Source: a virus
IMG/VR virus record: IMGVR_UViG_3300019854_000029
Coordinates: 56,360-120,359 of that record
Strand: one strand, 5' to 3'
DNA length: 64,000 nt
Shown: positions 2,685-59,380 of the stretch, piece after piece
How the letters are laid out: every line of letters starts with the position of its first letter
How positions within the stretch are numbered: the first letter of the stretch is position 1
Program-made: the position numbers and the translations under genes
The notes under the pieces: generated by a model
Seen by the model: the letters and a program-made list of their open reading frames with translations, nothing else
The model's database searches: none
Told to the model about the DNA's origin: nothing

Positions 2685-3548
2685 ATGCAAACACAAACCA
2701 CAAGCACGCCGTATGACCTCTATATGACGCTCTCCGAAATAGAGCTTTATTCAATAAGGGGGCAAATCCATTCATTCGTCAATCTCCGCACTGGCGTAAG
2801 GTCTCGACCTAAGCGCAACCTATACTTCACAGCTCGACGGGAAGATCGTTATGGGTTTACAACATGGGTTGTATCCTTGCGCACAGAAACCCCTCACTCA
2901 AAGACATTCTGGCGCATGAGCTTCAGTCCTCACCCCGGACACATGTATGAGCCGAGTAGCTACGAATCCCTCCAAGAGGCAAAAACGGCAGTTACCAAAG
3001 CATTTTCAGCGTTCATGGACATGGGTGACCATACTGCCACCGGACACGCAAAGTGGGGCCTGTGCTACACCAACGTCCGAGTGCTCCTTAAAGCCAAGAT
3101 TTTGCAGATGATTGCCCCTCAAGATGAGGTCGCAGCAAACATCAACAGCTCGATAGTTCAGCGCCTTAGAGAAGATGCTCTCTCTGAAATTGTTGAAAAG
3201 CTCGAACAAGTAGCGCGCTACACCAGAGAACCATCAGGGCTTCCCACCCGGAAGGCTATGTACCGTGCGCTGGGAGTACGCATTACAGCCGACGGCAAAA
3301 TCTCCGTCATCGGGGCCAGCCAACAGCAAACAAGAAATAAGAAACTTGGAATCGACTTCCGTTACGGCGAAGTCATGGACACGCCTATATATGCACTAGG
3401 CTGCTCTGACACCGACACAAGCATTTGGGCGTACACAAAAGAAGGGTATGCCGCGTCAGATATCTCCGCCGTACTCGGCCTCCCTACCGTGGCGGAAGTG
3501 AAGCGCATACAAAAACTTCCCGGCCTCACATGGAAGATGGGGGAGTGA
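2685..3548 (+). CDS. Hypothetical protein, tandem paralog 2 (C-terminal HTH-like)
   Basis: 287 aa. It shares the block EDRYGFTTWVVSL with NDRFGFTTWVITI of the next ORF, and the C-terminus YTKEGYAASDISAVLGLPTVAEVKRIQ. Confidence 0.65.
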   Translation: MQTQTTSTPYDLYMTLSEIELYSIRGQIHSFVNLRTGVRSRPKRNLYFTARREDRYGFTTWVVSLRTETPHSKTFWRMSFSPHPGHMYEPSSYESLQEAKTAVTKAFSAFMDMGDHTATGHAKWGLCYTNVRVLLKAKILQMIAPQDEVAANINSSIVQRLREDALSEIVEKLEQVARYTREPSGLPTRKAMYRALGVRITADGKISVIGASQQQTRNKKLGIDFRYGEVMDTPIYALGCSDTDTSIWAYTKEGYAASDISAVLGLPTVAEVKRIQKLPGLTWKMGE

Positions 3549-3552
3549 AACC

Positions 3553-4368
3553 GTGATTCGCATTGAAGATACTCAACGCTACACGTGCCAGCTCGGCCCT
3601 ATCGCGCAACGCTGCGGGCTTTACGAAGCGCCTATTGAAAGTTTCTGCGATACAGAAACCGGACTCAACGTCCGCCCCAATCAGAACAACACGCTATCGC
3701 TTGTCGCTAAGAGAAACGACCGATTCGGGTTCACAACATGGGTAATCACTATTAAGCGGAACAGAAAAATAGCGTTCCGAATGGGAGTCACCCCTCAGTT
3801 CCTAAGTGCGGTCAGCGACAAGAGACCCACCCTCGCAGAAAACGCCGATACCCTGCACCAGTGCGTGAACTTTGTGTTCAACACATACGTTCACGTAGCA
3901 AGTCGTGGAGAACTGAAAGCGATTCTTCTTTACGAAAACCCGCAGCTCCTATGGGAAGAAAAAGTACGCGCATATAGCACTCCCCGATATGCGCACCTCT
4001 TAGACGCTCCCCTCGGTGATTCCACCCCGCTAGAACAAATCGCCACGATCATGCGCGAAACGGCTGATGCGCTCTCAAACACCCCGAGAAGCAGGAACAC
4101 AAAGAAGCGCGCCACGCTACTAAGCGCCGGATGTGCTTTAGGGATAGACGGTTCACTGCTCCGTATTTTCAATCCCCTCACCCCCACAAGTAACGCACAC
4201 CTTGGCATCTACCAATACGGGCATGTTGTACGTGCTCCCATCCTTGCTGTGGGGTGCCCGAACGCTAAAGCAAGTGTCTTTGCGTTCGCAAAAGAAGGCT
4301 ACGGAAGAAGAATGATCTCTACACTAACCGGTATTCCTCTTAGCACTATCAGCGATTTCCTGCGTTAG
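3553..4368 (+). CDS. Hypothetical protein, tandem paralog 3 (C-terminal HTH-like)
   Basis: 271 aa with a GTG start 4 nt after the previous stop, preceded by GGGGGAG. The C-terminus is FAKEGYGRRMISTLTGIPLSTISDFLR. Confidence 0.65.
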   Translation: MIRIEDTQRYTCQLGPIAQRCGLYEAPIESFCDTETGLNVRPNQNNTLSLVAKRNDRFGFTTWVITIKRNRKIAFRMGVTPQFLSAVSDKRPTLAENADTLHQCVNFVFNTYVHVASRGELKAILLYENPQLLWEEKVRAYSTPRYAHLLDAPLGDSTPLEQIATIMRETADALSNTPRSRNTKKRATLLSAGCALGIDGSLLRIFNPLTPTSNAHLGIYQYGHVVRAPILAVGCPNAKASVFAFAKEGYGRRMISTLTGIPLSTISDFLR

Positions 4369-4380
4369 GCTAAGCGAAAT

Positions 4381-4425
4381 GGCCCTACTGCTTTTCGTTG
4401 CAGTGGGGCCGTTTTGGTTTATTTC
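4381..4425 (+). terminator. Rho-independent-type terminator after the paralog triplet
   Basis: 11-bp stem GGCCCTACTGC (4381-4391) / GCAGTGGGGCC (4400-4410, one G-U pair), followed by GTTTTGGTTTATTT. Confidence 0.7.
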
Positions 4426-4452
4426 GGCCTAGTTTTTCGGCGTTTTCAACGC

Positions 4453-4740
4453 CTTGGTCATGAACATTTTTCTTGGTCATATAGTTGTGTTTCTTGGTTA
4501 TGGAAATCGCGTTCCTTGGTTATGGGAATTATTTCCTTGGTTATATAGTTTCCATTTTTCACGCGGTCGTGTTTTTGGGGCGTGTTTTACGGCTTGGTCA
4601 TGAAGTTTCACTTCTTGGTCATGAAGATTCATTCCTTGGTCATATAGTTTCCGGTTTGTAGCACGATGCTTCGGTTGGTCACGTTTTGAGCGTCTAGTCC
4701 ACGTTTTGAGACGCTATAGCACGCTCGGCGGCTTGGTCAC
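4453..4740 (+). repeat. Iteron array: 8 exact CTTGGTYAT boxes plus 2 degenerate boxes, mostly at 19-22 bp spacing
   Basis: Exact boxes start at 4453, 4472, 4493, 4515, 4536 (cluster 1) and 4593, 4614, 4635 (cluster 2). Degenerate boxes are GTTGGTCAC at 4674 and CTTGGTCAC at 4732. The extended units are TYCTTGGTYAT followed by GAA, ATAGTT or GGRAA. CACGTTTTGAG also occurs twice (4680, 4700). Confidence 0.85.
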
Positions 4741-4816
4741 GGTCTCCCTTTTACAGCACGCTACCCCTAGAGACCTGTTTCGTTGGGAACACTAGCATCC
4801 CGGCGTGTTGATGACG

Positions 4817-4981
4817 TTTTTTGATGACTGATGTAAACTGATGTAAGAAAACTGATGAAAAACACCATCAGAAAACCCCCGCAACGACTTCCCAAACACC
4901 GGAGGTCTCCGAAAACACGGGGGTAAGACCAAACACCCGCCCCCGGTTGATGTGTTTTGACGACGAAAACCATCAACAAAA
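4817..4981. repeat. Left arm (IR-L) of a 165-bp inverted repeat; its partner is at 63836-64000
   Basis: The reverse complement of 63836-64000 matches 4817-4981 with about 6 mismatches by eye. The arm is rich in TGATG words and internal palindromes (CTGATG-N8-CATCAG; GTTGATG-N18-CATCAAC). It ends 25 nt upstream of the ATG at 5006. Confidence 0.9.
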
Positions 4982-5005
4982 TAGGCTACGAAAGACGCAA
5001 AACCC

Positions 5006-5404
5006 ATGAGTGAAGAGCTAGAAGAAACACCTGAGTACGGTTACATCGTCGGTTCGGGGGACGCGCGGCAAGAGCTGCGCTGGCGGTTCATCGTCGCTTT
5101 GGGCGCGTCCATGTCTAAAAACCCGCGTCGAGAACTAGCTGCCTACTGTCGCACGGTCGTTAAGAACGGGGAAGAGGCATTGACTGGTTCGAGCACGTTG
5201 CGTCTCCACCTGCTTGCTAGTGGCGTGGATGTTCTGCGTGAGTGTTTAGCCGATGAGGTCGATAGCGTGGAGACGTTAACTGGGGTCCTCATGGAAGCGA
5301 TGCCCGGTGGGCCGGAGTGTTGGAAGGCGTGGGATAAGACTGCGACAGGTGTTGACGGGGCGCGTAGCGTGGTCCCGTTGCTTTTGCGTGCGTTGCTTTT
5401 GTGA
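5006..5404 (+). CDS. Hypothetical protein (132 aa), first gene downstream of IR-L
   Basis: ATG ORF with GAAAGA upstream. No recognisable motif. Confidence 0.6.
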   Translation: MSEELEETPEYGYIVGSGDARQELRWRFIVALGASMSKNPRRELAAYCRTVVKNGEEALTGSSTLRLHLLASGVDVLRECLADEVDSVETLTGVLMEAMPGGPECWKAWDKTATGVDGARSVVPLLLRALLL

Positions 5405-5491
5405 CCGGCCTCGTTCGGCTGGCGCGTGGTGAGCGTTTAACTTAACTGTCGTGCGCGCGCGTAGTAAATGTTTCTTATCCAGTGAGGCTAA

Positions 5492-6334
5492 GTGTCGTTA
5501 GATCATGGAAGGACTTTTACTGTGTCGAGCGCGAATGTCATGCCGCCGTATATGCAGATGCAAGAGTGGGACCTTGATGAGCAAGACAAGGTTATTAAGC
5601 GCGCGTTTCGCGTGTGGAAGGAAACTCGTCCCTCAAGGTACTTGCAGAGCTTGTCGATGATTGTCCCGCAAGTGACACCGGAGGTGTTGCCTCCTGATAT
5701 GCGTCACCCGCGTGTGGAGATTAAAGAGACGTGGGATGAGTCCATTCACCCGGACTATAAGAAACTACTCGGTGCTCCTGCCGTGCTGTATGACGGGCCA
5801 CTGCTGCGCCCTAAGTTCAATGAGTATCGGAAGTACTTGGGGGATGAGGAAGTCCGTTGCCCGTCTGGTAGCGTCGCTGTACTGTCTGTTGATATTGGGC
5901 TTTCGCCCGAACAGTTTAAGAACCCGCCCGAGGGATACATGTATGTTCGCGCGGTCGGCCCGAACGCTGAGTATCCCGGTGGCGGCTGGGTGTACTGTAT
6001 TCCGAAAGTTTTCGTGAAAGAACAACCCCAGTACGCACTGTTCTTGTCTCGCCACACTCTGTCGGACACTGTTGACTCCTACAAGGTGTATATCGACGGG
6101 TATAGCGAGATGGTGTACTTGTCTATTGTCCGACAGTCCCCATACACAACTCGTTATGCGACTAAAGCTCCTATCGCTATTGCTGGGAGCTACGATCCGA
6201 ACGTTGTTCTCGCTTACGCTGAGGAAGTTCTACGCGGTTGGGAAGCGCATGGGATTATCCCCCCGCGAGCGCGATACACGCTTTCCACGCAAGAGTGCTT
6301 GTCGGTGTCTCACGCGAAACAGTTGGACGCTTGA
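5492..6334 (+). CDS. Hypothetical protein (280 aa)
   Basis: GTG start preceded by GAGG at 5 nt spacing. The overlapping frames 5712-6017 (+) and 5755-6069 (-) are shorter shadows. Confidence 0.65.
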   Translation: MSLDHGRTFTVSSANVMPPYMQMQEWDLDEQDKVIKRAFRVWKETRPSRYLQSLSMIVPQVTPEVLPPDMRHPRVEIKETWDESIHPDYKKLLGAPAVLYDGPLLRPKFNEYRKYLGDEEVRCPSGSVAVLSVDIGLSPEQFKNPPEGYMYVRAVGPNAEYPGGGWVYCIPKVFVKEQPQYALFLSRHTLSDTVDSYKVYIDGYSEMVYLSIVRQSPYTTRYATKAPIAIAGSYDPNVVLAYAEEVLRGWEAHGIIPPRARYTLSTQECLSVSHAKQLDA

Positions 6335-6360
6335 TGCAAGACGGCTTCTAGTTTCCTGAG

Positions 6361-6400
6361 AAAACCCGCTAGTGGTGGCATACGCGGCTGGCGGGTTTTT
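6361..6400 (+). terminator. Terminator-like hairpin with a T-run
   Basis: AAACCCGC (6362-6369) pairs with GCGGGTTT (6391-6398), followed by TTT. A second 8-bp hairpin, GTGGCGCT (6467-6474) / AGCGCCAC (6490-6497), lies in the leader of the next gene. Confidence 0.55.
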
Positions 6401-6578
6401 ATACTAATTAACAGGCACATGGGTAATGCCCTCCTTTCTGGTTGTTGTGCTTTTGGTTTGGAGCATGTGGCGCTGTCCTCTCAAGGGATAGCGCCACAGC
6501 TGTTTATGCGGCAGTGTGGTCGCGAGGTGGCGTTCTAAGCGTGAGTGTTGTTCCAAGCCGAGGAAGGAAAAGAGAAAA

Positions 6579-7688
6579 ATGGAACTGCTGATGATGGTTG
6601 TTCACCCGACTGCCACTAAGGATTACTTGGCTGTGTGGCGACTGTCGGGCGTTAACGCCTCGAAAGAGATCACGCCTGACAACGTGAGGGCTGCTGCGCT
6701 CAAGCACAAGGATGAGGCTTCTGGTGACGCGAAGAAAGTGATTGACGTTGTTGCTGACATTGAGGGCGCGGAAAGTGAAGTGCTTGGTGCCGGAGTACTG
6801 TTCACGCCTCAAGCTGTTAAGGGCATTGCCGAGAGCCACTTGAAGGAGCGCCCCGACTACGAGGAGTGCGTCGTCGTTGACTACTGTTCTTCCACGCTCC
6901 TTTGGGGCAAGGACGGCGAGTGGGAGACCATGCCGCTATTCACGGACGACGCGGGTAACGCGGACGACGCATCGGACACGCCCCTCGCTGAGCTATTGAA
7001 GCGCGTCGAGGTCTCAGACCTGACCGCGTTCACTGGCGAGAAGGCTCGTATTCGCACAGAACGATCAGTGAAGCGCCACTGGCCTTACGTGTTGAAGGTC
7101 AAGAAGGTCCGCGAGGTTCCCGATGAGGAACTTACCGGCCTGCGTAAAGACATTAAGGGCCTGCGCCTGTTGGATATTGCGCTTGAGACCGGCGTTGTTC
7201 ACCTGCTTGTCCCTAACTGTAAGGACGTGCGCGGGGGAGAGGCGCAACGTTACTTGTGGCATAAGCAACTGGCGCGCGCCATCTACGCTTTCGAGCGAGA
7301 TAGGGTTGCTCAAAAGAAGATGCAAGCCGGTCAGGAGAAAATCTTGATTCGCTACGGTGAGTCAGAAAACCCGGTGTGTGTGGCGATCACAGCGGAAGCG
7401 TTGAAGCGGGAGCTTACTATCGACGGCGAACCCGAAAAGGGCGCTACGAAGCACGTCTACACGGCAGATGGCATCACGATCATTCGCTACGGTGAGCGTG
7501 GCTGGGAATGGAGTTACTTCGATATTGGGGAGGGGAAGCACCTAGTGCAGCGCACCGGCCAGAACGGTGAAGGGATATTCGTTCTCAAACAGAGCGCATG
7601 GTGTCTGCTACGGGATGCCGTGGACTTCAAGGCCCCCGCAACCGAGGAAGAAATGCTCGCCTACATTCTCCGGTCGTTGAACAGCTAA
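6579..7688 (+). CDS. Hypothetical protein (369 aa)
   Basis: I prefer the ATG at 6579 (MELLMMVV...) because AGGAAGGAAAAGAG lies directly upstream. The ORF-track start at 6516 lacks an RBS. Confidence 0.65.
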   Translation: MELLMMVVHPTATKDYLAVWRLSGVNASKEITPDNVRAAALKHKDEASGDAKKVIDVVADIEGAESEVLGAGVLFTPQAVKGIAESHLKERPDYEECVVVDYCSSTLLWGKDGEWETMPLFTDDAGNADDASDTPLAELLKRVEVSDLTAFTGEKARIRTERSVKRHWPYVLKVKKVREVPDEELTGLRKDIKGLRLLDIALETGVVHLLVPNCKDVRGGEAQRYLWHKQLARAIYAFERDRVAQKKMQAGQEKILIRYGESENPVCVAITAEALKRELTIDGEPEKGATKHVYTADGITIIRYGERGWEWSYFDIGEGKHLVQRTGQNGEGIFVLKQSAWCLLRDAVDFKAPATEEEMLAYILRSLNS

Positions 7689-7740
7689 TAAGGCCACTAC
7701 AGCGCCTTGTCGTAAAGCAAGAGGCGGCGAGTAAAAGAGA

Positions 7741-7790
7741 GCGGGCCGAGACAGTCTGTGGTGACTGGTCTCGGCCCGCTCGTTTTTTGT
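7741..7790. terminator. Bidirectional terminator between convergent genes
   Basis: 12-bp perfect stem GCGGGCCGAGAC (7741-7752) / GTCTCGGCCCGC (7768-7779), followed by TCGTTTTTTGTG. Confidence 0.8.
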
Positions 7791-7801
7791 GTCTGCACGG
7801 T

Positions 7802-8101
7802 CTAGCTTGCAATGAGTTCTTGCCTACGAGCAAGAGTTTCACGCATTTCCTTGCGCTCCTTCATGGTGGTTCCACCCCAAATACCGCGTTCCTCGTCCTC
7901 TGAGGTGAGTGCGGCTTCTAGGCACTCGATACGCACGGGGCACTGTGAGCACAGTTCGATTGCCAGTCTGGCTTGTGCGGTCTGTCCCGCGCCGGGGAAC
8001 CAAATGTCCGGGTCAGTTTGGGAGCAGATTCCTTGCTGCCGCCATGATTCTTTGCTGTTGGTGATGATGATGTCGTTAACGAACTTGCGCATTGGTCGCA
8101 T
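7802..8101 (-). CDS. WhiB-like (Wbl) Fe-S transcription factor
   Basis: Four Cys in C-X24-C-X2-C-X5-C (CSQTD...CSQCPVRIEC), followed by the GIWGG turn and a basic tail. The start is set at 8101 (MRPMRKF) to avoid overlap with the HNH gene; the ORF extends to 8149. Confidence 0.8.
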   Translation of the reverse strand: MRPMRKFVNDIIITNSKESWRQQGICSQTDPDIWFPGAGQTAQARLAIELCSQCPVRIECLEAALTSEDEERGIWGGTTMKERKEMRETLARRQELIAS

Positions 8102-8135
8102 AATGGTGGGCTTTCTGGTTTGGGTTTGGTTTGGT

Positions 8136-8513
8136 TTACGCGAGTGCAATGTACGTGTAGGAGCCGTCCGGGAACAGGAAGCGCGGCCCGTCCGGGTAGG
8201 AGACGGGAATATCAGCGGGGTCAGACCATTGGGAGACGGCCCACCCGTGCTCTCGGGCTTCTTCCCGGTGGGTTTCCACGTACCCGTGACATCCGGTGGT
8301 GCCGCTTCCGCATAGGACGATGAGGTTCACGGGACTGTTGATTTCTTCGTCTTTCGTGCCGCCCATGCCACGCGCTTTACGGTGCTGGATAGAGGACTGA
8401 ATGTAGGTGATGTCTTTCCCGCACCGTGCGCACCGCCACCCGTCACGGTTGTACACCAACATGCGGGTTTCAGGGCTGGGGCCGGTAGACCTGTGAGACT
8501 TACGTGAGGCCAT
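8136..8513 (-). CDS. HNH endonuclease
   Basis: RDGWRCARCGK...IQHRKARGMGG...NLIVLCGSGTTGCHG (CxxC, H-N-H core, second Cys/His pair). Its start lies 1 nt after the RecT-like stop. Confidence 0.75.
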   Translation of the reverse strand: MASRKSHRSTGPSPETRMLVYNRDGWRCARCGKDITYIQSSIQHRKARGMGGTKDEEINSPVNLIVLCGSGTTGCHGYVETHREEAREHGWAVSQWSDPADIPVSYPDGPRFLFPDGSYTYIALA

Positions 8514-8514: not shown

Positions 8515-9798
8515 TCAGATCAGTCCTTCTTCGCCGTCAAGCTCGTTCTCGTCGAGAGCGTCCTCGGGCATGTCTACGCCACCAAAGCCCAAGCGCTCGT
8601 GAATGTTGAGGAGCATCCGGCGCACTGTGTCGTCGTCGAGAGTGTGGACGGGCACGGGGTGTGCGAACCCAAAGTCGGCGTAGAGGTTTTCGGTTTCTAC
8701 GTAGTCGAGGCGCTGATCGAGGAGCTGGGCGAGTTCACGCTGTGCTGCGCTCAAAAGCGGGGGACGCTGCTGCTCGGGAGCTGGGGCGGGCTGGGGTGCG
8801 GGCTGCTGCATGACAGGAGCGGGAGTGGGCATGTTGCGCGGAGGTTGAGGCGCATACCCCTGAACGGGCGCGGGAGCATTGTCTTGCTTTACGGGGACGC
8901 TTTGCGCGTGAGCGCGCTGCTTTTCCATTTCCCTGAGCAATGCTGTTGCTTCACTGGGGCGCATCGTCTCATACGTGCGAGAAGGCGCGACGCACTTCTT
9001 AATGAGCGCGCGCTTAGCGCCGGGGGACATGCCGGTCAACGCTGCGGAGAGCGCTTCAATCTCGGCCTTAATGTCAACGGTTTCCGCCGCGTTGCGCTCG
9101 TGCTCGTAAGAGACAAGGGTGGGGAGGATTTCGGTTGCGAGTTCTTCTGCGGTGCGAGATTGCAGGTCGTCGAGCGTGAACCCGGTGAGGTTTTTGAGGG
9201 TTTCGTCGTCCAACTTGAGGTAGTCGATTTCAGCTTTCACGGGAGCAAATGCGTGCGCGAACTTCTTCTCGTGGTCGGAGGAGACTTCTTCGGGAGTGTA
9301 GATGAGGCCGTTCAGCACGTCGGCTGCGTGACGGCGGCACACTTCAGCGACAGCGCGGTTGGTGAGCATTTCCTGTGTGTGCTGAATCCAGAACGTGCTG
9401 GAACCCCACAAGTGAGCGCGGCGGGCGCGCTGTTCGTCCCACACGCTCGTGTAGGTCTGCTTCTTGGTGCCTGTCGCTGCGGGGCGAGTGAGAGTAACGG
9501 TCGCCGTGTGTGTGGCTTCGTCGTAGGTTTCTTCGAGCGTGAACCCGTGTTTGAGGACTGCTGCGGTCATCATGTTCACGCTGATAGTGGGCTTCACGTC
9601 GCCGGAAGAATCAGGGATGAGGTGGATGCCGTTAAGGACTGCGGAGATGTTAGCGAGTCCGGCGGCTTCGCCCATTTCCATTGCAAAGAGGATTGCGCCC
9701 GCGTTGTGGCGGTAAGCGGTGGGTAGGACGGTGTTGGTGTCTGCGAGAGCGAGGGCGTAGGCGAGACGCTGGTCGAAAGTGAGCTGCGAGAAGTCCAT
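8515..9798 (-). CDS. RecT-family single-strand annealing protein with a long Pro-rich/acidic C-terminal extension
   Basis: ...AILFAMEMGEAAGLANISAVLNGIHLIP...ISVNMMTAAVLKHG... and ...FWIQHTQEMLTNRAVAEVCRRH... resemble conserved RecT blocks. I prefer the start at 9798 (MDFSQL, AGGA upstream); the ORF extends to 9888. Confidence 0.55.
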   Translation of the reverse strand: MDFSQLTFDQRLAYALALADTNTVLPTAYRHNAGAILFAMEMGEAAGLANISAVLNGIHLIPDSSGDVKPTISVNMMTAAVLKHGFTLEETYDEATHTATVTLTRPAATGTKKQTYTSVWDEQRARRAHLWGSSTFWIQHTQEMLTNRAVAEVCRRHAADVLNGLIYTPEEVSSDHEKKFAHAFAPVKAEIDYLKLDDETLKNLTGFTLDDLQSRTAEELATEILPTLVSYEHERNAAETVDIKAEIEALSAALTGMSPGAKRALIKKCVAPSRTYETMRPSEATALLREMEKQRAHAQSVPVKQDNAPAPVQGYAPQPPRNMPTPAPVMQQPAPQPAPAPEQQRPPLLSAAQRELAQLLDQRLDYVETENLYADFGFAHPVPVHTLDDDTVRRMLLNIHERLGFGGVDMPEDALDENELDGEEGLI

Positions 9799-9895
9799 TG
9801 TTTCTGGTCCTAGTGGTTGTTGTGGTTTGGTGTGTGAAAGTTTTGGGGCGGCGGGCGCGCTTTTGGTTTGGGAGAGCACGCCCGCCACAGTGGGT

Positions 9896-12554: not shown

Positions 12555-13135
12555 AGGTTGAGTCGCCCCTTGCTCCATCGGACGCGACCGAGTTTGATTT
12601 CTTTCTCAATGGCCCTGCGGGGGAAGAACTGTTCGGCTTCTTGGATGGTTGCTCCGGGGTGTTCTTCTAGGAACGCTCTGAGCGTCGTAGGGGCCGTGTA
12701 CACGCTCTCGGTGACCTTCCGGGCCTCCGGGCGTTCTACGGGCTTCCTAGCGGGCATGTGAGGCTCTGTAGAGGCTTTACGTGCCACTTGCTCTACCGCG
12801 CGCGGTTGGATAGCTGGACGCGGCTTCGACGCTTCCGCCACAAGCTCATCTTCCGACAGTTCCCCAAGGAGCATTGTCAGCATGTCAGGAGTCAACAACT
12901 GTTCTTCTTGAGCCAGACGCAACGGCTTAAGGTACTTACTGCGATCAGCGGGGGTAATGCGACGCGGGTGGGAGAGGAAACTGAACCCTTGGGCGCGTTC
13001 CTTCGCCTCGAACTCAGCGAAAAACGCTGCTTTCACCTCGTCATAGTTCCATGTGCCGATCACGCGGCCCAGATGATACGGGCCTTGAAGATCGTTCAAG
13101 CGCTTACCCACCGTAGGGTCGAGTTCAAGATTCAT
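12551..13135 (-). CDS. Hypothetical protein (194 aa)
   Basis: The start is set at 13135 (MNLELDP), giving an ATGA overlap with the stop of the FtsK-like gene. Confidence 0.6.
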   Translation of the reverse strand: MNLELDPTVGKRLNDLQGPYHLGRVIGTWNYDEVKAAFFAEFEAKERAQGFSFLSHPRRITPADRSKYLKPLRLAQEEQLLTPDMLTMLLGELSEDELVAEASKPRPAIQPRAVEQVARKASTEPHMPARKPVERPEARKVTESVYTAPTTLRAFLEEHPGATIQEAEQFFPRRAIEKEIKLGRVRWSKGRLNL

Positions 13136-15288
13136 TGCAGGAGTCCCCAAATGCTAGACGAGTCCAGTTTTTCTGCGTCCGAGGCGCTGATCGCTGCCTC
13201 TTCCGTGGTCTCAGTGGTTTCTTCGACCAACAGGTCATCTTCTTCTTCCTCATCGTCGTCTGCCATGTCGTAGAACGTTGGCACGGTCATCGGCTGGTTG
13301 GAAGCAGGCTCAAAGCCGAGCTTTTCCCAGTAGGAGGAAATGTAGTCAGAGATCGCCGTGGTCTCGCTCTGGTCGGCTGCGAGCATCGCGGCTTTAATGA
13401 ACGTCGGCGCACCGTCTTGAACGAATGGGAACTTCGCTCCCATGTCGCCGGGATGCGACAAAGCGTAGGGGAACTCGCTTGCCGTGCGAATACCCAAAGC
13501 GCGTACAACGTCCTCAGCAACGTTCGTCCGCAATACTGCTGCTGCGCGTATCTGCTTAATAGCATCAGCGGGGAGGTGAGAGTTCACTGCGCGCTGCGGG
13601 GTCACAATGATGTAGATACCCAGCGACGCGAACGTGTTCGTCACCTTCTTGAACAATGCTTCATACTCAGACAGGTCACTGCCCATGCCGTCACTGATCG
13701 TGGAAAGCTCATCGAAAAGCATGTAAATGAACGGCAACTCCACATCCGGGTTGAGCTTCTTAAAGTCCAGAATGTTCACCTGACCAGACTCAGCAAACAT
13801 CTTGGAACGGCGGGGAACCTCAACGTTGGCAATGAACCGTAGAGTCTCCAAAATATCGCTCGACGTAAACGCCTTGCGGCGAATGTGCGGCAGGTTCAAC
13901 GACGCATAGTCAGAGGCTTCGCCCTTCGCGTCGCAAATAGCGAACTGAATCTCCGTCGGAGGCACATACGCTGCCATCTGGCACACGAGGTTCTTCGCGA
14001 ACACTGACTTACCTGAACGGGTAGGGCCAGCGACAAGAATCGAGTTCAACCCATACAGGGAGCCGTACTGTGGCTTGCCCATACTGTCTACGCCGATCAC
14101 GACAGGGAGCTTGTTTTGGGGGTTGAGAATAAAGTCTCGCACGCCCTTGTCCTGATACAGGTCGCCGGTTGAGAGCATGATTCCACCATCACCCTTGTAC
14201 AGGTGAATGAATGCTTTCGAGCCGGACTTGAAGCCAACGGCGCGCGCGTTCGGGTGTTCTTCCACGCCTCGCTCGTCGTAGCGGTAGATGTCTGCGAGTT
14301 CTTCTGCGAGCTTGTCATGAGACAGTCGAGAGCCGCGCGACACGGTGAACACGTACATGAACTGGTTTTCTTGCGCGCTCAGTAGTTCGGGCATTGAATC
14401 TTCTGGCGTGTTGATCTGCTTTGCTGCGCCGTAAATCATTTCAGCGAAGATGGCCCACTGTGACGTGTCCTTCTGGTAGGTCGTCCACGCGCTGATCGAC
14501 GGGTTGATGCGGGGGAGGATGGCCGAGAACTTCTCAAAGAGGAACCCGCGCGTGTACATGCCTTTCATGCCCTCGGGCACGTCGGCTTCGCGGGGGATTC
14601 CCGTTGAGACGGGCTGAGCGGGCAGGAGGTCACCCCAGCCCAAGTCCTCTTCCTCTGCTTCCACCGTGGGGGCGGCTTCTACTACCGGCTCACTGCTGAA
14701 AGCAGGCTCAACCGGGGCGGGCTGCGGCAAGGGAGCGGGGGTCTCGACAACCGGCTCGGGGGCGGGACGGTTCTTGCGCGCGCGCAATGTGCTTAGCGAG
14801 AACCCGCCAGTGAACAAGAGCGCGCCACACATGGCAGAAAACATGCCGCCCAAGAGGACATACGCGCCAAAAGACAAGACGGGAACAAAGATGCTGAGCA
14901 GCGTGAGGAGAGTGCCCGCAACGCACGTGCCCGCCGAGAACTTGAGCGCACTCAGCCCGGTCTCGGCAACGGTGTCAGCCGTATGGTCCTTGGAAGCCTT
15001 CACGGCTTCTTTCGTGAACTGCCATGAGGCTTGACCTGCTGCCATTGCCGCACGCTCTGCCGTGGACTGTGCGCTCGCGGTCTGGTCTTGCCCAATATGA
15101 GCAAAAGACATGCCGCCGGGTTGCCCTAAGCCGCTGGACGCATAGGGGGCAAGCTGAGGGCCGCTGATAGTCCGCTCAGGCATACCCCAATCCAAGTTAC
15201 TGTCACCCATTCCCGGAGCAAACGTCGGCTGGTGCGTGCGCTGCTGGTAGCGTCGCAACGCTTCATCATCATCAGAGTTAAAAGCCAC
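13132..15288 (-). CDS. FtsK/SpoIIIE-family DNA translocase, probable T4SS coupling protein (TcpA/ConQ-like)
   Basis: N-terminal TM helices, Walker A VAGPTRSGKS and Walker B PFIYMLFDELS. GTG start at 15288 preceded by GGTGAGG. Confidence 0.8.
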   Translation of the reverse strand: MAFNSDDDEALRRYQQRTHQPTFAPGMGDSNLDWGMPERTISGPQLAPYASSGLGQPGGMSFAHIGQDQTASAQSTAERAAMAAGQASWQFTKEAVKASKDHTADTVAETGLSALKFSAGTCVAGTLLTLLSIFVPVLSFGAYVLLGGMFSAMCGALLFTGGFSLSTLRARKNRPAPEPVVETPAPLPQPAPVEPAFSSEPVVEAAPTVEAEEEDLGWGDLLPAQPVSTGIPREADVPEGMKGMYTRGFLFEKFSAILPRINPSISAWTTYQKDTSQWAIFAEMIYGAAKQINTPEDSMPELLSAQENQFMYVFTVSRGSRLSHDKLAEELADIYRYDERGVEEHPNARAVGFKSGSKAFIHLYKGDGGIMLSTGDLYQDKGVRDFILNPQNKLPVVIGVDSMGKPQYGSLYGLNSILVAGPTRSGKSVFAKNLVCQMAAYVPPTEIQFAICDAKGEASDYASLNLPHIRRKAFTSSDILETLRFIANVEVPRRSKMFAESGQVNILDFKKLNPDVELPFIYMLFDELSTISDGMGSDLSEYEALFKKVTNTFASLGIYIIVTPQRAVNSHLPADAIKQIRAAAVLRTNVAEDVVRALGIRTASEFPYALSHPGDMGAKFPFVQDGAPTFIKAAMLAADQSETTAISDYISSYWEKLGFEPASNQPMTVPTFYDMADDDEEEEDDLLVEETTETTEEAAISASDAEKLDSSSIWGLLQ

Positions 15289-40235: not shown

Positions 40236-40817
40236 TTAGTTTGCGGTCCAACTGGACAGTTCTTCTATTAGTAATACGCGCTCAAGGGGATTCTCGGGAG
40301 TTACGTGAGCGCTTTCGTCAAGGAAGTTCGTGTGTTCTTCTTCATTCCCTACGCCTTGTGGGGCTTCTAGGAACGAGGTGGGGAGTTCTTCGTAATCGCT
40401 TGGGGTCTCCTCTTGCACTGGGACGGTTGTTGGCTTGGGTTCGGGTTGCACCTGCGGTTCAGGCACGGACTGTACCTGCACGGGCGGGAGCGTGGGTTCT
40501 ACCCGTGGAGGCTCTTGCTGCGGGATAGTGACGACGGGCGGAGGCGTGATGTCACCGGTCGTGGGGGCAAGATTGCCTGTTGTCAGGTGAGGCATTTGCT
40601 CACCCGCGCTGCGTGCCGCGAGCCGCGTGTACGTGTCGGTTGCGCTTTGGGTTTGCACCATGCGCGTAATGTCGCTGACTGCATCACGGTATGTTGCGCC
40701 AGAAATGCGCTTACGCATGGCTTTAAGGTCCCAGCGGATACTGAGGAACGCTGCCGTGAACAAGAACGCGAGAGCGAGGAATACGAGGATGAGCGCCGTG
40801 ATCGTGTAGGTCGTCAT
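40236..40817 (-). CDS. Single-pass membrane protein (193 aa) with a Pro-rich region
   Basis: N-terminal TM segment ALILVFLALAFLFTAAFL. 4-nt overlap with the kinase gene. Confidence 0.6.
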   Translation of the reverse strand: MTTYTITALILVFLALAFLFTAAFLSIRWDLKAMRKRISGATYRDAVSDITRMVQTQSATDTYTRLAARSAGEQMPHLTTGNLAPTTGDITPPPVVTIPQQEPPRVEPTLPPVQVQSVPEPQVQPEPKPTTVPVQEETPSDYEELPTSFLEAPQGVGNEEEHTNFLDESAHVTPENPLERVLLIEELSSWTAN

Positions 40818-42520
40818 TTTTGGTCCCCGTTCTCTTGGAAGAGCGTCGCAATGGTTGCTTTCGTCTTGTCGATCTTCCCCGCGAGTTCTTTAGCGAGTTC
40901 TTGGGGGCGACCGGCCTTAAAACCTTGGTGCTGCGAGAGGTAGGTTTGCGCTCGCTGCATTTGCTTGTCCATATCGTCCTTCGTCACGCCGTCACTTTTA
41001 AGACCATACGGGTTAGAGGTGATGGAGTCGAGAATATAGTTCAACACCGTGAGCTGGATGACCTCACTACTTGAGGACGTGTCGAGGCCCGTGAGGTTGT
41101 TCCAATACGTGCGGTACATGCCGGTGTCGCCGCCGGTTTGTACGGCTGAGGCGATATCACGGTTGAACGAGGCGAGGTTGTACAGGGCGGTTGCCTGCTG
41201 CGTGTTGTATCCGCCGTCGATAGCGTCCTTGAACCACGGTGCCGACAAGGTGAGACCGGAGGCTCCGCCGTCCCCTTGGTAGAAGAACCAATATGCCTCT
41301 CCGATACGGTATGCGAGTTCGGGGTAGCGCTTGTTCTTTTGGATTTCGTTCACGTTGTCGCGGACGAGGGGGATGAGGGTGCTTTCTTCTTGTGACGTGA
41401 AAACGCCGTCCCCTTGGATTGCCGCGTCGATAGCGTGGAAATAATTGTCAATGTCGCCGGGCTTAGCTTCAATGGCTTTCGCCCATCCGTCTACGGTTCC
41501 AGCTTTCTCGGCGGACGCGACGAGGGCCGTGTAGGAACTGGATTCCACGCTGTACCCATAGGCGAGGGACGCGCCCGCGCCACCAAAGCACAGTAAGCCA
41601 GCCACGGCGAACGCGATGATCGCGCGCACGCGGCTTTTCGCTGCTTTCACATGCTTTTCGTCGGTCTGCTTGTAGGTGGAGAGCGCGGCGACGACTTCCG
41701 TCATGGACTGGTAGCGTCGTTCGGGCTGCGTTGCGACGCACCGTGCGATGACGCGCGACAGTGCGGGGGACACGTTGGGGTTGATGACGCTCGCGTTCAC
41801 GGGGCCAAGAGGAACACCTTGAGCATCCATCTGCGGGAGACGGCCCGTGAGGAGCACGAACATCGTCATGCCGAACGCATAAATGTCACTACGCGGGTCT
41901 AGTGGTGCGCCGGTTGTCCGCTGTTCGGGGGGCGCGTACCCGCGAGTTCCGACAGCTTGGGGGTTCGTGTAGTTGTTTGGGGTGATCTGCTCGCTGATAC
42001 CAAAGTCCAAGAGCTTGATCGCACCGTTGTCGAGCATGACGTTACCGGGTTTGAGATCGCGGTAGATGATCGGCTCGGGCAGTGAGTGTAGGTAGATCAA
42101 GATGAGCGCGAGCTGCGTCATTTTGGAGACGACGAAATCTTCGGGGAGTTGCCCACCGGGAGCGTTTTTTGCGACCTTATCGAGGGAGGTTCCCGCAACA
42201 AAGTCCATGAGGACGCTGTACAAGCCGCCCGGCGTGTTGGTGTCGTCTTGCACGTCGATGATGTGGGGGATTCCCGCGTGGGAGAGTCCCTGCATGAGCT
42301 GGGTTTCAGCTTTCAGACTGTCGAGGACTTTCTGGGCTTGGAGGAGTTGCCGCCCACGGTAGGAGCCGTCGGGGGCTGCGACTTCTTTGAGTGCGACGGG
42401 TTTTTGGAGTTTCGTGTCGTAAGCACGGTAAACGCGGCTGAACGTGCCGTCGTGCATGAGCGCGTCGATCTGGTAGCGCCCGTGGAGGAACGTTGTTCCT
42501 ACTTGTCTCGGCGTGGTCAT
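40814..42520 (-). CDS. Hanks-type Ser/Thr protein kinase with a TM segment and a ~250-aa extracytoplasmic domain
   Basis: VALKEV (catalytic Lys), YRDLKPGNVML, LLDFGIS, GTRGYAPPE. TM segment AIIAFAVAGLLCFGGAGASLA followed by a helical-repeat-looking C-terminal domain. Confidence 0.85.
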   Translation of the reverse strand: MTTPRQVGTTFLHGRYQIDALMHDGTFSRVYRAYDTKLQKPVALKEVAAPDGSYRGRQLLQAQKVLDSLKAETQLMQGLSHAGIPHIIDVQDDTNTPGGLYSVLMDFVAGTSLDKVAKNAPGGQLPEDFVVSKMTQLALILIYLHSLPEPIIYRDLKPGNVMLDNGAIKLLDFGISEQITPNNYTNPQAVGTRGYAPPEQRTTGAPLDPRSDIYAFGMTMFVLLTGRLPQMDAQGVPLGPVNASVINPNVSPALSRVIARCVATQPERRYQSMTEVVAALSTYKQTDEKHVKAAKSRVRAIIAFAVAGLLCFGGAGASLAYGYSVESSSYTALVASAEKAGTVDGWAKAIEAKPGDIDNYFHAIDAAIQGDGVFTSQEESTLIPLVRDNVNEIQKNKRYPELAYRIGEAYWFFYQGDGGASGLTLSAPWFKDAIDGGYNTQQATALYNLASFNRDIASAVQTGGDTGMYRTYWNNLTGLDTSSSSEVIQLTVLNYILDSITSNPYGLKSDGVTKDDMDKQMQRAQTYLSQHQGFKAGRPQELAKELAGKIDKTKATIATLFQENGDQK

Positions 42521-43230
42521 AGGAGTTCTCCGGCGTTGATGAGGATTGCTGTGATGTTGTCGCTTTCCCCGTTCGCAATGGCCCTGCCTGCGAGGGTTTC
42601 AAGGCCGGTTTGCGCATTGCCGGGGAGGTAGTTGTTTTCTCGCTCAAACTCATGCCAGAACCCGTCCGAACACAGGAGGAAACTATCGCTGGCAGAGTAT
42701 TCACCGACGTAGGTGTCGGGTCGGGCTTTCTCACTGTTACGGTGGCCGAGGCCACGGGTGATGCTACTGCGGTATTTCGCGTGAATCTGGGGGGTGATTT
42801 CAACGCCGCGTTCACGTAGTTCAGCGAGTTTACTGTGGTCTCGGGTGAGTTGGAGGGCTTGGCTACCTGCTTTAAGCATGTATGCGCGCGAGTCTCCAAC
42901 ATGAACGATGGTGTAGCGGCCCATGTAAGCACGCAACACGGTCAGGGTCGTGTTCCCGGCTGCTTCGCGTGCTTTCTGGTGCGCGCGGGCGACAGCTTGG
43001 ACGAGTTGCCCGTCTGAGACGTTCCCGGTTGCTACGAGGTCGAGGAATGTTTGCCCCGCGCCGATGGACGCGAGGCGACCGTTGGGACCTTCACCACCAA
43101 CACCGTCTGCGACGAGCGCGACTATGCCGGTATGCCCTGCGGCCTCAAACAGTGCTGCCGCGTAACTGTCTTGGTTTTCTCGCCTGCCGTTAACGTTCGT
43201 GTAGGTGGAGACAATGTCGGTGATGCTCAC
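42517..43230 (-). CDS. PP2C-family Ser/Thr phosphatase
   Basis: NQDSY..., ALVADGVGGEGPNGRLAS, VHVGDSRAYM, LLCSDGFW, SDNITAILI. ATGA overlap with the kinase gene. Confidence 0.85.
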   Translation of the reverse strand: MSITDIVSTYTNVNGRRENQDSYAAALFEAAGHTGIVALVADGVGGEGPNGRLASIGAGQTFLDLVATGNVSDGQLVQAVARAHQKAREAAGNTTLTVLRAYMGRYTIVHVGDSRAYMLKAGSQALQLTRDHSKLAELRERGVEITPQIHAKYRSSITRGLGHRNSEKARPDTYVGEYSASDSFLLCSDGFWHEFERENNYLPGNAQTGLETLAGRAIANGESDNITAILINAGELL

Positions 43231-44318
43231 AGTTCCTCCATGATCTCGAATGGGATGTCTCCAAGAAGAAGAGAGTGTACGGGGAGACTGGTTTCCACGG
43301 GCACGTTGGGGGAGAGCACGTGTGAGCCGAGTTTCGTTTTGTTCGTGGAGCCAAGGTCGGTGATCGTGATGGTTCCGCGCTGGGGGTTGATGTCGAGGCG
43401 CGCGTGGTGGCGGCTGATGACTCGCTTCGCGTCACCGTGTCCGACGGGGATTTCACTGGACGTGGGGGAACGTCCGATGATCGCCGGGTGCGTGGGAACC
43501 GGGTAGGTTTCCCCGGTGACGAGGTTGCGGAGCACCCACTGTGAAGTGTCTGCTTCTTCGTCGAGGAACCCGGTGAGTTCGTCTGCGTCGCTGTAGGTGA
43601 CGGGCGCGGGCTGCGGGGGTGGCATGTGGATGGGCATGTCGGTGGGTGCGGGCATCACGGGAACCTGCGGGGTGGGTGCTGTTGCCGGTTCCACCACCGG
43701 CTGAGGCATGGGAGGTGCCTGTTCGATGACGGGTTCAGGTACCACGACGGGGGCTTCTTCAACCACGGGCATCATGGGTTGCGGGGGCATGATAGGCTCC
43801 GGCTCTACCACAGGCATAGGCTCGGGCTGTGGGGGCATAACAGGTTCCGGCTCGGGTTCCATCACGGGCATAGGAGCGGGCTGCATGGGTTCTTGCGGGG
43901 CGGGGCCACCGTAAGCTGCGATGAGGTTCGCCGGAGCGCACGCGGGGAACGTTTGGATGGGCATATCGACAACGAGGTCACTGATGGACGCGGGAGAGGG
44001 CGCATCGAGGAGGGGCTTGCGCTTATTGCGCGCAAGATACTTCGTGATGCTGTCCCACTGGGCTGCGATGTCTTTGGAAATGAAGTCCCACAGGTCGAAT
44101 CCTGTGTTCGCGCCGGGGTTGACGACAACCCACACGTGGCCTTCACTGTTGGCTGCGAAACCTACTGCGTCACGCCAGTTCCCGCCTTCCTTACGGAAAG
44201 CGTTCCATGCTGCGACGACACTGTTCAGTGCGTCGGGTGTGGGGCATCCGTTGATGGGGGTGAGGCCAATGTTTCGCGCGTCTTTGGCGAGTACTGCGGT
44301 GTTGATGGGAGCGTTCAT
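43227..44318 (-). CDS. FHA-domain protein (unknown N-terminal domain, Pro-rich repeat linker, C-terminal FHA)
   Basis: The C-terminal ...AIIGRSPTSS...VISRHHARLDINPQRGTITITDLGSTNKTKL... is a canonical FHA core. The linker repeats PEPxMPPQPxMPVVE. Confidence 0.8.
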   Translation of the reverse strand: MNAPINTAVLAKDARNIGLTPINGCPTPDALNSVVAAWNAFRKEGGNWRDAVGFAANSEGHVWVVVNPGANTGFDLWDFISKDIAAQWDSITKYLARNKRKPLLDAPSPASISDLVVDMPIQTFPACAPANLIAAYGGPAPQEPMQPAPMPVMEPEPEPVMPPQPEPMPVVEPEPIMPPQPMMPVVEEAPVVVPEPVIEQAPPMPQPVVEPATAPTPQVPVMPAPTDMPIHMPPPQPAPVTYSDADELTGFLDEEADTSQWVLRNLVTGETYPVPTHPAIIGRSPTSSEIPVGHGDAKRVISRHHARLDINPQRGTITITDLGSTNKTKLGSHVLSPNVPVETSLPVHSLLLGDIPFEIMEEL

Positions 44319-44569: not shown

Positions 44570-45655
44570 TTAGGCGGCGACGGGTGTTTTCGCGAGGTGT
44601 TCGGCAACGAGAATGTTCGCCGCTGCGCCCACACGGCGGGGCGACATAGAGGGGTTAGCGGAGCGTACTTGCTCATAGAACATGTCGAACAGTCGGCTGC
44701 GTTCACGCGATTCTGCGTCCTCTTCGGCATCGAGCATGGCTTCTACGGCAGCGTCTTGCCTGCTGCGAGCTTCTTCTGCCTGCTTGCGGGCCGCTTCCTG
44801 CTTCTGGGCGGGCGACACGTCGGGGTTGATCTTGTTTTCCATGCGGAAACGGAGGAAAGCGAACATGTTATGCACGTTGGACGGCATACCCTCGCTGAGG
44901 ATTGACGCGATTTCTACGTGCATCCACCCGATGTTGAGGCGAGCTTGGACAAGCTGGTACATTTCCTCGATCTGCGTGTCAGTCCACGCTTCTACGCCCA
45001 CGCCTTGAGGCATACACGAGGCGACGATCTCACGCTTAGAACGCCCATTACGGGCACGGGCCTGCATCGCTGCTTCCGCTTTGAGAACACGTTCACGCTT
45101 ACGAGCATTCATACGCTTTTCGCGCTTACGGGCACGGGCTTCCTTAATCGCCGCGCGCTCTTCGCTAGTGGAGCGAACGTAGGCAACAGCGTCACGAACA
45201 GTGGAAGCAACCTGCTCAATGGGAGACTCGATCTCTTCCTCAGCAACAGGCTCAAGGAGAATAAGCTCAGGGGCTTGCGGTTCCCACGGGCCGAAACGGT
45301 TAATGGTTACAGGCTTACGGGTAGAGCCGTCATAACGGTAGCCTTCAAGCCACATTTCAATGGTCGGAATGTGAATCGTGTGTACTGCGCTAGTGCGGTG
45401 CTTCACGCCGCGAGCGTCCGTCCAGTACCGGTGCTGGGTGTGCATGAGACCGAGTTCCCTGAAGCGCTTGAGTACTTTCTCAAGGTAGCTTTTTGAGCAT
45501 CCGATCTCGCGGGACATCGTGTCTAGGCTCTTCCAAATCTGCCACGAGTTCTCGTTAGCGTTTTTAACGAGATAGAAGAGAATATCTTGTTCCTTGAACG
45601 TCATTGCGATGACGGTGACGATGCTTTTAGCTGCACGGATTAGTGCGCGGGACAT
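44570..45655 (-). CDS. Winged-helix DNA-binding protein (361 aa), candidate replication initiator or replication-relaxation protein
   Basis: AAGGAG RBS. The N-terminal domain ...SREIGCSKSYLEKVLKRFRELGLMHTQHRYWTDARGVKHRTSAVHTIHIPTIEMWLEGYRYDGSTRKPV is paralogous to 46181-46597. The function is inferred from architecture and position only. Confidence 0.4.
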   Translation of the reverse strand: MSRALIRAAKSIVTVIAMTFKEQDILFYLVKNANENSWQIWKSLDTMSREIGCSKSYLEKVLKRFRELGLMHTQHRYWTDARGVKHRTSAVHTIHIPTIEMWLEGYRYDGSTRKPVTINRFGPWEPQAPELILLEPVAEEEIESPIEQVASTVRDAVAYVRSTSEERAAIKEARARKREKRMNARKRERVLKAEAAMQARARNGRSKREIVASCMPQGVGVEAWTDTQIEEMYQLVQARLNIGWMHVEIASILSEGMPSNVHNMFAFLRFRMENKINPDVSPAQKQEAARKQAEEARSRQDAAVEAMLDAEEDAESRERSRLFDMFYEQVRSANPSMSPRRVGAAANILVAEHLAKTPVAA

Positions 45656-45750
45656 AAAAAATACTCCTTGGTATTAAGAAGAATCATTGCGTGCTTCATA
45701 GGCTATAGCCGCTCTCCCGGTCTGTCAAACACGGGGAGGAAAAAATTTTT

Positions 45751-45816
45751 AGGCCCAGTTGGAATGAACCAACCGGGCCTAACGCAAATTCTTCTTAACT
45801 CACGAGGAGTTAAGAA
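45751..45816. other. Two adjacent strong hairpins in the divergent intergenic region (ori/oriT candidate)
   Basis: AGGCCCAGTTGG (45751-45762) / CCAACCGGGCCT (45769-45780), 12 bp with 1 mismatch. TTCTTAACTC (45792-45801) / GAGTTAAGAA (45807-45816), 10 bp perfect. Confidence 0.6.
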
Positions 45817-46054
45817 AATAATCCCACGTAACCACAGTGTTTGCAACTGTTACCACGCGATTCCAGCTAAGAGTTTCCTGCAATCTGCCATGACGAGACC
45901 TTGACGCGCGCCACTACCTGTTCGCCAACTCTAAAAGCATTTGAGAAAATATTTCCCCCGCCGTTAGGCGGTAGATCTATCAGTCGCACTGCGTCCACAC
46001 ATGGGGGGAGGGGGTTATTCTTCATTATTCTTCTTCTATTCACTAAAGGTATAT

Positions 46055-59358: not shown

Positions 59359-59380
59359 GGTTTCACCACCTTTCTGGGAA

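Follow-up and report, generated by a model that had tools for sequence, protein, structure and literature searches.

The DNA considered here, called the window, is a stretch of 64,000 nucleotides (nt) of IMG/VR record IMGVR_UViG_3300019854_000029 (positions 56,360 to 120,359), and its subject is a non-coding module that occurs as two inverted copies, or arms, near its ends. A repeat search gave one inverted pair in the window, 4817 to 4985 versus 63832 to 64000 (169 nt, 96% complementary, 58,846 nt apart), and a base-by-base comparison placed seven mismatches between the arms at 4898, 4900, 4902, 4925, 4937, 4939, and 4982. An earlier note on this DNA had described an inverted match of 4817 to 4981 with about six clustered mismatches; six of the seven lie within these limits and are clustered as claimed. 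The start codons it named, ATG at 5006 on the plus strand and ATG at 63814 on the minus strand, are in place, and the common sequence ends 20 nt upstream of the left one and 17 nt upstream of the right one. The same module heads two convergent operons, again as described, and the proteins of these two operons are unrelated.

The repeat unit is about 547 base pairs (bp) long and not 165 bp as first described. The end of the window cuts the match, and the suspicion that the repeat may be longer was correct: homology in related contigs runs outward to about 4440, and blastn searches and alignment against right-arm loci gave a full unit at window positions 4440 to 4985, iteron array included. The contigs of the relatives came from several human metagenome studies and were obtained by exact-protein look-up with the 132-amino-acid (aa) protein encoded at 5006 to 5404 and the ParM-like protein encoded at 59446 to 60621. 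Positions 4440 to 4985 align upstream of the gene for a 215-aa protein in all right-arm loci (L007 to L014 and others, with full right arms in L007 to L014, L016, L019, L020, and L025), and the second iteron array anticipated beyond the arm at the window end is present in these relatives. About 36 arms with unique flanks were found in independent assemblies of several studies, which answers the question of an assembly artefact that the earlier note had raised.

Anatomy and conservation of the module

Each arm consists of iterons, a box region, an AT-rich stretch of TGATG words, and a GC-rich leader reaching almost to the ribosome-binding site. The features are as follows.

4375 to 4416, plus strand: terminator-like hairpin (17-pair stem, then a T-run) ending the upstream gene at 3553 to 4368
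4440 to 4985, plus strand: left arm, full module, delimited by blastn and alignment against right arms; pairwise identity between arms 87 to 90%, in the same or in different elements
4453 to 4556, plus strand: iteron cluster A, five direct repeats with the core YTTGGTYAY, starting at 4453, 4472, 4493, 4515, and 4536 (spacing, 19 to 22 bp)
4593 to 4657, plus strand: iteron cluster B, three direct repeats starting at 4593, 4614, and 4635 (spacing, 21 bp)
4657 to 4765, plus strand: box region with three copies of TAGCACG, two of CACGTTTTGAG, and two of TTGGTCACG
4806 to 4875, plus strand: AT-rich (37% GC) stretch of TGATG words, with GTTGATGAC, TTGATGAC, two copies of CTGATGTAA, and CTGATG-N8-CATCAG
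4876 to 4945, plus strand: GC-rich (65%) leader with two hypervariable patches, 4898 to 4906 and 4935 to 4945
4946 to 4977, plus strand: palindrome GTTGATG-N18-CATCAAC just upstream of the ribosome-binding site, conserved, without compensatory changes
63832 to 64000, minus strand: right arm, inner 169 nt; the remaining 380 bp or so, with the iterons, lie beyond the window end

In this lineage, the hairpin at 4375 to 4416 marks where the left arm ends on its outer side, with homology to the right arms beginning at about 4440. An identical 32-nt lead-in precedes iteron clusters A and B, and one copy of TTGGTCACG in the box region represents a ninth, iteron-like core at 4732. The iteron core has ten matches in the window, nine of them inside the arm, versus 1.7 expected for the whole window; the cores (five plus three, plus the ninth) are all on the plus strand at a spacing of 19 to 22 bp. 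An inverted iteron or half-iteron operator near the start codon was not found, and there is no core match between 4742 and 5006. The sole DnaA-box-like motif, AGTCCACG in the box region, is a weak match (seven of nine positions) to the actinobacterial DnaA box, the consensus of which we take to be TTGTCCACA.

Eight TGATG or CATCA words were counted in 191 nt versus 0.52 expected, the highest count among such stretches in the window, so the arm is rich in these words as the earlier note had seen. Its palindromes stood in part: CTGATG-N8-CATCAG and GTTGATG-N18-CATCAAC are present in all arms, and CGGAGGTCTCCG is located in a hypervariable patch and is not conserved. The arm is non-coding. A hidden small open reading frame on its minus strand was considered and rejected, with variable sites distributed 15/15/12 over the three codon positions. 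A search for the ends of an insertion sequence or composite transposon revealed no transposase adjacent to the arms and no coding signal in them, and backbone genes are present on both halves of the circle that the element forms.

The pattern of variation was compared in 24 full arms for identity and in 25 arms for insertions and deletions in the last 191 nt. The iteron cores are invariant or nearly so, and about 60 nt of the TGATG stretch at 4806 to 4875 are invariant in nearly all arms; the variation is in the spacers and in the two leader patches. This combination of invariant cores and varying spacers may be read as the footprint of protein-binding sites. Mean identity in the iteron part was 0.87 versus 0.95 to 0.96 for the flanking genes, and the last 191 nt of the module contained no insertion or deletion. 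The number of iterons varies, with one unit fewer in L001 and L004 and about 100 bp extra in L021 and L128. Since the cores are equally conserved in both arms, the left-arm iterons appear to have been kept functional and not to have decayed.

Mean identity was 0.894 between left arms, 0.892 between right arms, and 0.890 between left and right arms. Among the 189 variable sites, none showed a fixed difference between left and right, and 119 were polymorphic on both sides; the arms therefore exchange sequence over evolutionary time. Both arms of one element are 0.87 to 0.90 identical, which is the same as for arms of different elements. Concerted evolution with rapid homogenization within one element was rejected for this reason.

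Just outside the left arm is a variable cassette with two paralogous genes (2685 to 3548 and 3553 to 4368, plus strand; 30% identity) whose products have C termini that look helix-turn-helix (HTH)-like by eye. In a comparison of L001, L003, L004, and L149, these paralogues were missing in some relatives, and another paralogue was present in L149, the left arm of which keeps about 45 nt more of the right-type outer boundary.

Operons, relatives, and the host element

The genes downstream of the two arms are the following.

5006 to 7688, plus strand: left operon, encoding proteins of 132 aa (5006 to 5404), 280 aa (5492 to 6334), and 390 aa (6516 to 7688)
56035 to 63814, minus strand: right operon, first four genes encoding proteins of 215 aa (63167 to 63814), 317 aa (62209 to 63162), 236 aa (61506 to 62216), and 278 aa (60689 to 61525); last four genes encoding a ParM-like actin of 391 aa (59446 to 60621) and proteins of 421 aa (58093 to 59358), 168 aa (57618 to 58124), and 514 aa (56035 to 57579)

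The three proteins of the left operon matched no known family and are not paralogous to those of the right operon. In the right operon, the product of 59446 to 60621 matched MreB-like_C (7e-9), the PHROG family "partition protein" (4.5e-22), and the NCBIfam ParM model (1.6e-7, below the cut-off of that model), and tblastn found ParM/StbA genes on Bacillus thuringiensis plasmids (27% identity over 91% of the query). The 168-aa protein encoded downstream of it has a conserved strand-helix-helix N terminus, a variable acidic linker, and an invariant acidic C-terminal tail. A tandem repeat of two 21-bp units (90% match) is present at 63455 to 63495 within the coding region of the 215-aa protein. 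The third-position GC skew of the sense strand is positive or neutral in the genes directly downstream of the arms (5006 to 8315, plus strand; 62209 to 63814, minus strand) and strongly negative (−0.1 to −0.5) in nearly all other genes of the element.

When the 215-aa, 168-aa, and 278-aa proteins were used as queries, the matches were almost only from this element family. For the 215-aa protein, an indexed search gave no homologue below 94% identity and an exhaustive search gave four at about 30% identity. The 278-aa protein led to a sister clade composed of L113 and eleven IMG/VR contigs of up to 144 kilobases (kb), in which the gene order (219-340-216-279-ParM-like-453-208 aa) keeps synteny with the right operon. 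In this clade, a module of about 900 bp is located upstream of the operon, with about 15 iterons of 21 bp of a different sequence, GATAGAGGTTGCACCTA, and also with a C-rich stretch, GATG words, and a palindrome before the ribosome-binding site; TGATG words were not significantly enriched there. Three independent motif scans of these contigs revealed one module site per contig, a result to be read with the caution that, in the clade of the window itself, one arm escaped an exact motif. In L112, the gene for a more remote homologue of the 215-aa protein follows seven iterons of about 21 bp with yet another sequence, and the distant relative L110 has a UvrD-type helicase gene within the homologous operon.

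One module precedes the same ParM-like operon in the sister clade, and the right arm is therefore the ancestral position. On sequence comparison, the module is part of the right operon and evolves together with it; the left arm, which heads an unrelated operon, probably originated from it as an inverted copy. Alternatively, a second copy may have been lost in the sister clade.

The IMG/VR contigs that carry the arm are 109 to 123 kb in size. In two of them, both contig ends fall within the same arm and overlap by 47 and 77 nt, which indicates circles of about 122.1 and 117.1 kb. Measured from arm midpoint to arm midpoint, the two arcs of one circle span 59.1 and 62.9 kb, and those of the other 57.5 and 59.6 kb. 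Values for contigs of 120.4 and 123.0 kb are similar, and the arms are thus 48 to 50% of the circle apart. The element is a circle of about 117 to 123 kb and probably represents a conjugative plasmid from Bifidobacteriaceae-like Actinobacteria. Its gene content suggests a plasmid of this type in a Gram-positive host with high GC and comprises an FtsK-like coupling protein, a VirB4/HerA-like ATPase, an NlpC/P60 hydrolase, LPXTG/TQ surface proteins, WhiB (in relatives), a kinase/phosphatase/FHA cluster, and the ParM-like actin. TnpB genes inserted in relatives are closest to those of Bifidobacteriaceae (70 to 75%). The assignment of the host is based on this similarity, on WhiB, and on LPXTG, since an exact 29-mer from the arm was absent from the species-representative genomes searched. 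A blastn search with positions 4400 to 6400 gave no DNA match among deposited phages and plasmids. No phage structural family was matched, including in PHROG scans of the large central genes, which makes the "viral" label in IMG/VR doubtful.

The FtsK-like protein (13132 to 15288, minus strand) and the ParM-like protein have their best or only plasmid matches, at 27 to 29% identity, on a 350-kb plasmid of B. thuringiensis israelensis of the pXO16 type (L165). On this plasmid, a homologue of the 514-aa protein (56035 to 57579, minus strand) is encoded three genes after the ParM gene. This suggests an old backbone common to a Firmicute megaplasmid and this actinobacterial element.

Away from the arms, the window contains a candidate replication region (44570 to 47385) with an initiator candidate at 44.5 to 46.6 kb and repeats of its own.

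44570 to 45655, minus strand, and 46181 to 46597, plus strand: genes for winged-helix paralogues (HTH_36, 3.6e-9; RP-C N-terminal domain, 7.8e-4)
46054 to 46089: perfect tandem repeat of 15 bp in 2.4 copies, TATAGTGCTCTTCCC
46981 to 47385, minus strand: gene for another HTH protein

GC skew was rejected as an origin marker because the third-position skew follows the coding strand and represents codon usage. Two tRNA genes are located at 46854 to 46927 and 50714 to 50788 (both plus strand), a tRNA-His with the unusual anticodon ATG and a tRNA-Lys(TTT), and a region at 40814 to 44318 (minus strand) encodes a Ser/Thr protein kinase of 568 aa, a PP2C phosphatase of 237 aa, and an FHA-domain protein of 363 aa. 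Insertions of the IS605/IS607 type (TnpB/OrfB, Y1 transposase, resolvase) vary in number and position among elements that are about 95% identical (L001 to L014). One relative is part of a scaffold of 244 kb that also carries chromosome-like genes, one of them RarA/MgsA-like. Two proteins of the element were indexed in 191 and 368 blocks of the assembly collection.

Possible functions of the two arms

Because the shared unit covers the whole leader down to the ribosome-binding site, co-regulation of the two operons would be the minimal consequence of the duplication. With the iteron cores equally conserved in both arms, the proposal of the earlier note that one regulator serves two operons is the best-supported reading. 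We tentatively go one step further, to a proposal that we give nearly an even chance of being correct: the arm may be an iteron platform of the centromere/operator type, joined to a promoter and leader, and its duplication would bring two operons under common control. The arrays with their 21- to 22-bp units would be the binding platform for a protein encoded by the element, the candidates being the 168-aa protein, with its ribbon-helix-helix-like N terminus, and the 215-aa protein encoded first in the right operon. The module, ancestral to the ParM-like operon, would have been copied as a whole and in inverted orientation to the far side of the circle of about 120 kb, where it would drive the unrelated three-gene operon. 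When bound, the arrays would act, like parC in R1 or the omega-bound parS sites in pSM19035, both as a centromere-like partition complex and as an operator throttling the embedded promoter, which would place both operons in one autoregulatory loop and provide the plasmid with two equivalent binding arrays. A centromere/operator is favored because the module travels with ParM-like genes in both clades and because a candidate adaptor, the 168-aa protein, is encoded downstream of the ParM-like gene. With a separate candidate initiator and its own repeats at 44.5 to 46.6 kb, the origin need not be in the arms.

Several observations weigh against this proposal. One core of about 12 bp per 21 to 22 bp is a phasing more typical of Rep-type iterons than of the 10- to 11-bp ParR units. 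The arrays are 3.2 kb and four genes upstream of the ParM-like gene instead of adjoining it, and the gene for the 421-aa protein sits between the ParM-like gene and the candidate adaptor. The assignment of this adaptor as a ribbon-helix-helix protein comes from the sequence pattern and an AlphaFold model with a predicted local distance difference test score (pLDDT) of 41 only, and the protein had no match in Pfam, to other families, or in PDB. For the 215-aa protein, a confident model (pLDDT, 80) gave no PDB fold match, with a best E-value of 1.9. A consensus scan found no sigma-70 promoter in the arm. On the pXO16-type plasmid, the ParM-like gene is within a long array of unknown genes and its role is by annotation only. 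To our knowledge, no type II partition system with two centromeres on one plasmid has been described. Finally, an iteron origin or copy-control array fits the 21- to 22-bp single-core phasing, the order of an AT-rich followed by a GC-rich part, and the helicase of the relative about as well. No Rep-like protein is encoded next to the arms, and a ParR fold could not be confirmed either.

Replication is the first alternative, which we regard as possible if somewhat unlikely. The arms would then be iteron replication origins or copy-control arrays, with the right arm as the origin before a rep-containing operon, and the left arm, opposite the first, as a second origin or as an array like incA/incC that titrates the initiator or pairs with the origin ("handcuffing"). 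The direct repeats are phased at 21 to 22 bp in two clusters, and the sister clade has this phasing as well, in iterons of a different sequence; over three lineages, the iteron sequence changes along with the lineage-specific protein of the first gene. Adjoining the iterons is an AT-rich stretch (37% GC, 4800 to 4875) with short direct repeats and then a GC-rich segment, an order that resembles RK2 oriV. The weak DnaA-box-like AGTCCACG also occurs in the sister clade, the homologous operon of the distant relative contains the UvrD-type helicase gene, and nearly opposite arms (arcs of 48 to 50% of the circle) would suit balanced replication arms. However, neither the 215-aa nor the 132-aa protein matched a Rep family, the former also being the one whose model at pLDDT 80 found no PDB fold. 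No inverted half-iteron operator is present near the start codon, with all iteron cores on one strand; a more conventional candidate initiator (HTH_36, RP-C N-terminal domain) with its own repeats is available at 44.5 to 46.6 kb; and GC skew, being codon usage, gives no origin signal. Two identical iteron origins on one molecule are, moreover, normally inhibitory.

A purely transcriptional duplication, in which operator, promoter, and leader were copied so that a second operon joined the same regulon with no role in partition or replication, is unlikely. The iterons would in this case bind an activator or repressor such as an Xre-type protein of 76 aa, the gene for which directly flanks the right arm on its outer side in many relatives; an HTH_3 gene ends about 60 nt before the right arm in L007, L010, and L011, and the paralogues with HTH-like tails are just outside the left arm. 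The ribosome-binding sites are exactly where the repeat stops, and the promoter-proximal 191 nt of the repeat are fixed in length and highly conserved. Eight to ten phased 21-bp sites over 300 bp are, however, unusually elaborate for a simple operator, and the Xre-type gene and the HTH-tailed paralogues are missing from many relatives that keep the arms.

A further possibility is a "two-pole" replicon. In it, two equivalent, functional iteron loci, as origins or centromeres, would be held about 180 degrees apart by selection and would be interchangeable via recurrent gene conversion. We know of no description of a dual-origin or dicentric plasmid design in bacteria, and we rate this arrangement as rather improbable.

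An action of the promoter-proximal 165 to 190 nt mainly as RNA is very unlikely. Possible forms are a structured 5′ leader shared by the two mRNAs and an antisense counter-transcript that ends at a minus-strand hairpin (4871 to 4852) followed by a T-run. The plus strand folds better than shuffled sequence (z = −4.1), the minus strand has this terminator-like hairpin, and the length of the segment is fixed. Against this, compensatory changes were seen in none of the 43 predicted pairs, with a covariation term of −0.69 for sequences that are too similar for a fair test, and the Rfam matches were below threshold and at chance level. The hairpins are made of TGATG words that are also present unpaired, which argues for sequence recognition rather than structure.

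The earlier note had also considered the arms as recombination substrates that invert the 59-kb segment, as in the yeast 2-micron plasmid or in invertible segments. The two copies of 547 bp are inverted and 87 to 90% identical, the 119 common polymorphisms without any fixed difference indicate exchange between the sides, and some assemblies break exactly at both arms into contigs of 57.7 and 63.3 kb. A gene at 8515 to 9888 (minus strand), about 3.5 kb from the left arm, encodes a 457-aa protein that matched the PHROG family "RecT-like ssDNA annealing protein" (2e-15), and this protein might contribute to the exchange between the arms. Nevertheless, about 30 of the roughly 36 arms could be typed on both sides, and none had swapped flanks: in every typed arm, a left outer flank went together with the left operon, or a right outer flank with the right one, in assemblies, which report the majority form only and could miss rare isomers. 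No recombinase gene is linked to either arm in the window, and the resolvase genes of relatives belong to IS605/IS607-type insertions elsewhere. Assembly breaks are expected anyway at repeats of 547 bp and are no proof of isomers. Because the arms within an element are no more alike than those of different elements, the exchange points to patchy gene conversion or recombination between elements and not to frequent flipping, and the inversion reading is very unlikely. The related idea of terminal or flanking repeats was not supported, since contigs pass through both arms into unique DNA and two assemblies are circular.

Contig ends frequently fall inside the arms, but a chimeric or collapsed contig is effectively refuted by recurrence, with both arms and unique flanks on each side in dozens of independent assemblies from different assemblers and studies, identical gene order each time, and two contigs that close into circles.

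Comparison with known systems and meaning of the arrangement

The centromere of plasmid R1, parC, is composed of two sets of five iterons (PMC2241845). As in the parC/ParR/ParM systems of R1 and pSK41, arrays of direct repeats head here an operon with an actin-like ATPase, and a small protein encoded downstream has a conserved acidic tail and an N terminus similar to DNA-binding domains. The operon promoter of R1 is located in the repeats, which makes the centromere an operator as well. Differences are the single-core unit of 21 to 22 bp here in place of 10 to 11 bp, the distance of 3.2 kb and four genes between arrays and actin gene, the 421-aa gene before the candidate adaptor, which is a candidate by sequence pattern, and the presence of two inverted arrays per plasmid about 60 kb apart.

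In pSM19035, repeat arrays that overlap three promoters are operators and centromeres, with six sites in all (PMC9499535). Similar to this omega/parS system of the inc18 plasmids, one DNA-binding protein would here serve repeat arrays over the promoters of several operons; unlike it, the present element has an actin-like motor instead of a ParA ATPase, and the pSM19035 system uses a 7-bp heptad and a proven ribbon-helix-helix protein. The six sites of pSM19035 are three distinct sites, each present twice by way of the long inverted repeats of the plasmid. This inverted duplication covers most of pSM19035, whereas only the 547-bp module is duplicated here.

Iteron origins and control loci such as RK2 oriV, P1 incC/incA, F ori2/incC, and R6K contain direct repeats of 17 to 22 bp at a phasing of about 22 bp with AT-rich and then GC-rich sequence alongside, and in plasmids of this type a second iteron array controls initiation. 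The arms differ by the lack of a recognizable Rep protein, of an inverted half-iteron operator, and of a good DnaA box in the module, and by a second array that is a full copy including the putative promoter and leader, 60 kb away. The inverted repeats of the yeast 2-micron plasmid and of chloroplasts are comparable in that two repeats of about 0.5 kb or more split a circle into nearly equal unique halves. Those repeats recombine and both isomers coexist, whereas the present element was seen as one isomer only and has no dedicated recombinase linked to its arms.

Each ingredient has been described before: iterons, centromeres embedded in promoters, sites for one regulator at several places on a plasmid, and the division of a circle by inverted repeats. 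New is their combination in a 547-bp module of iterons, putative promoter, and leader that is present in two mirror copies about 180 degrees apart on an undescribed element of about 120 kb, with arm exchange but no visible inversion, and with one copy in the sister clade. Common in human metagenomes, the element consists almost entirely of orphan genes, and its arms, as the most conspicuous non-coding feature, are a natural entry to its replication, partition, and regulatory proteins. The clades with one and with two copies are a ready-made evolutionary experiment. If the arrays are operators only, they would be a clean natural example of the rewiring of an operon by copying a whole control region. 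If they are centromeres or origins, two opposite mirror-image copies would be an unusual layout for a plasmid, and the interest in the element would rise sharply if both arrays were active in this role.

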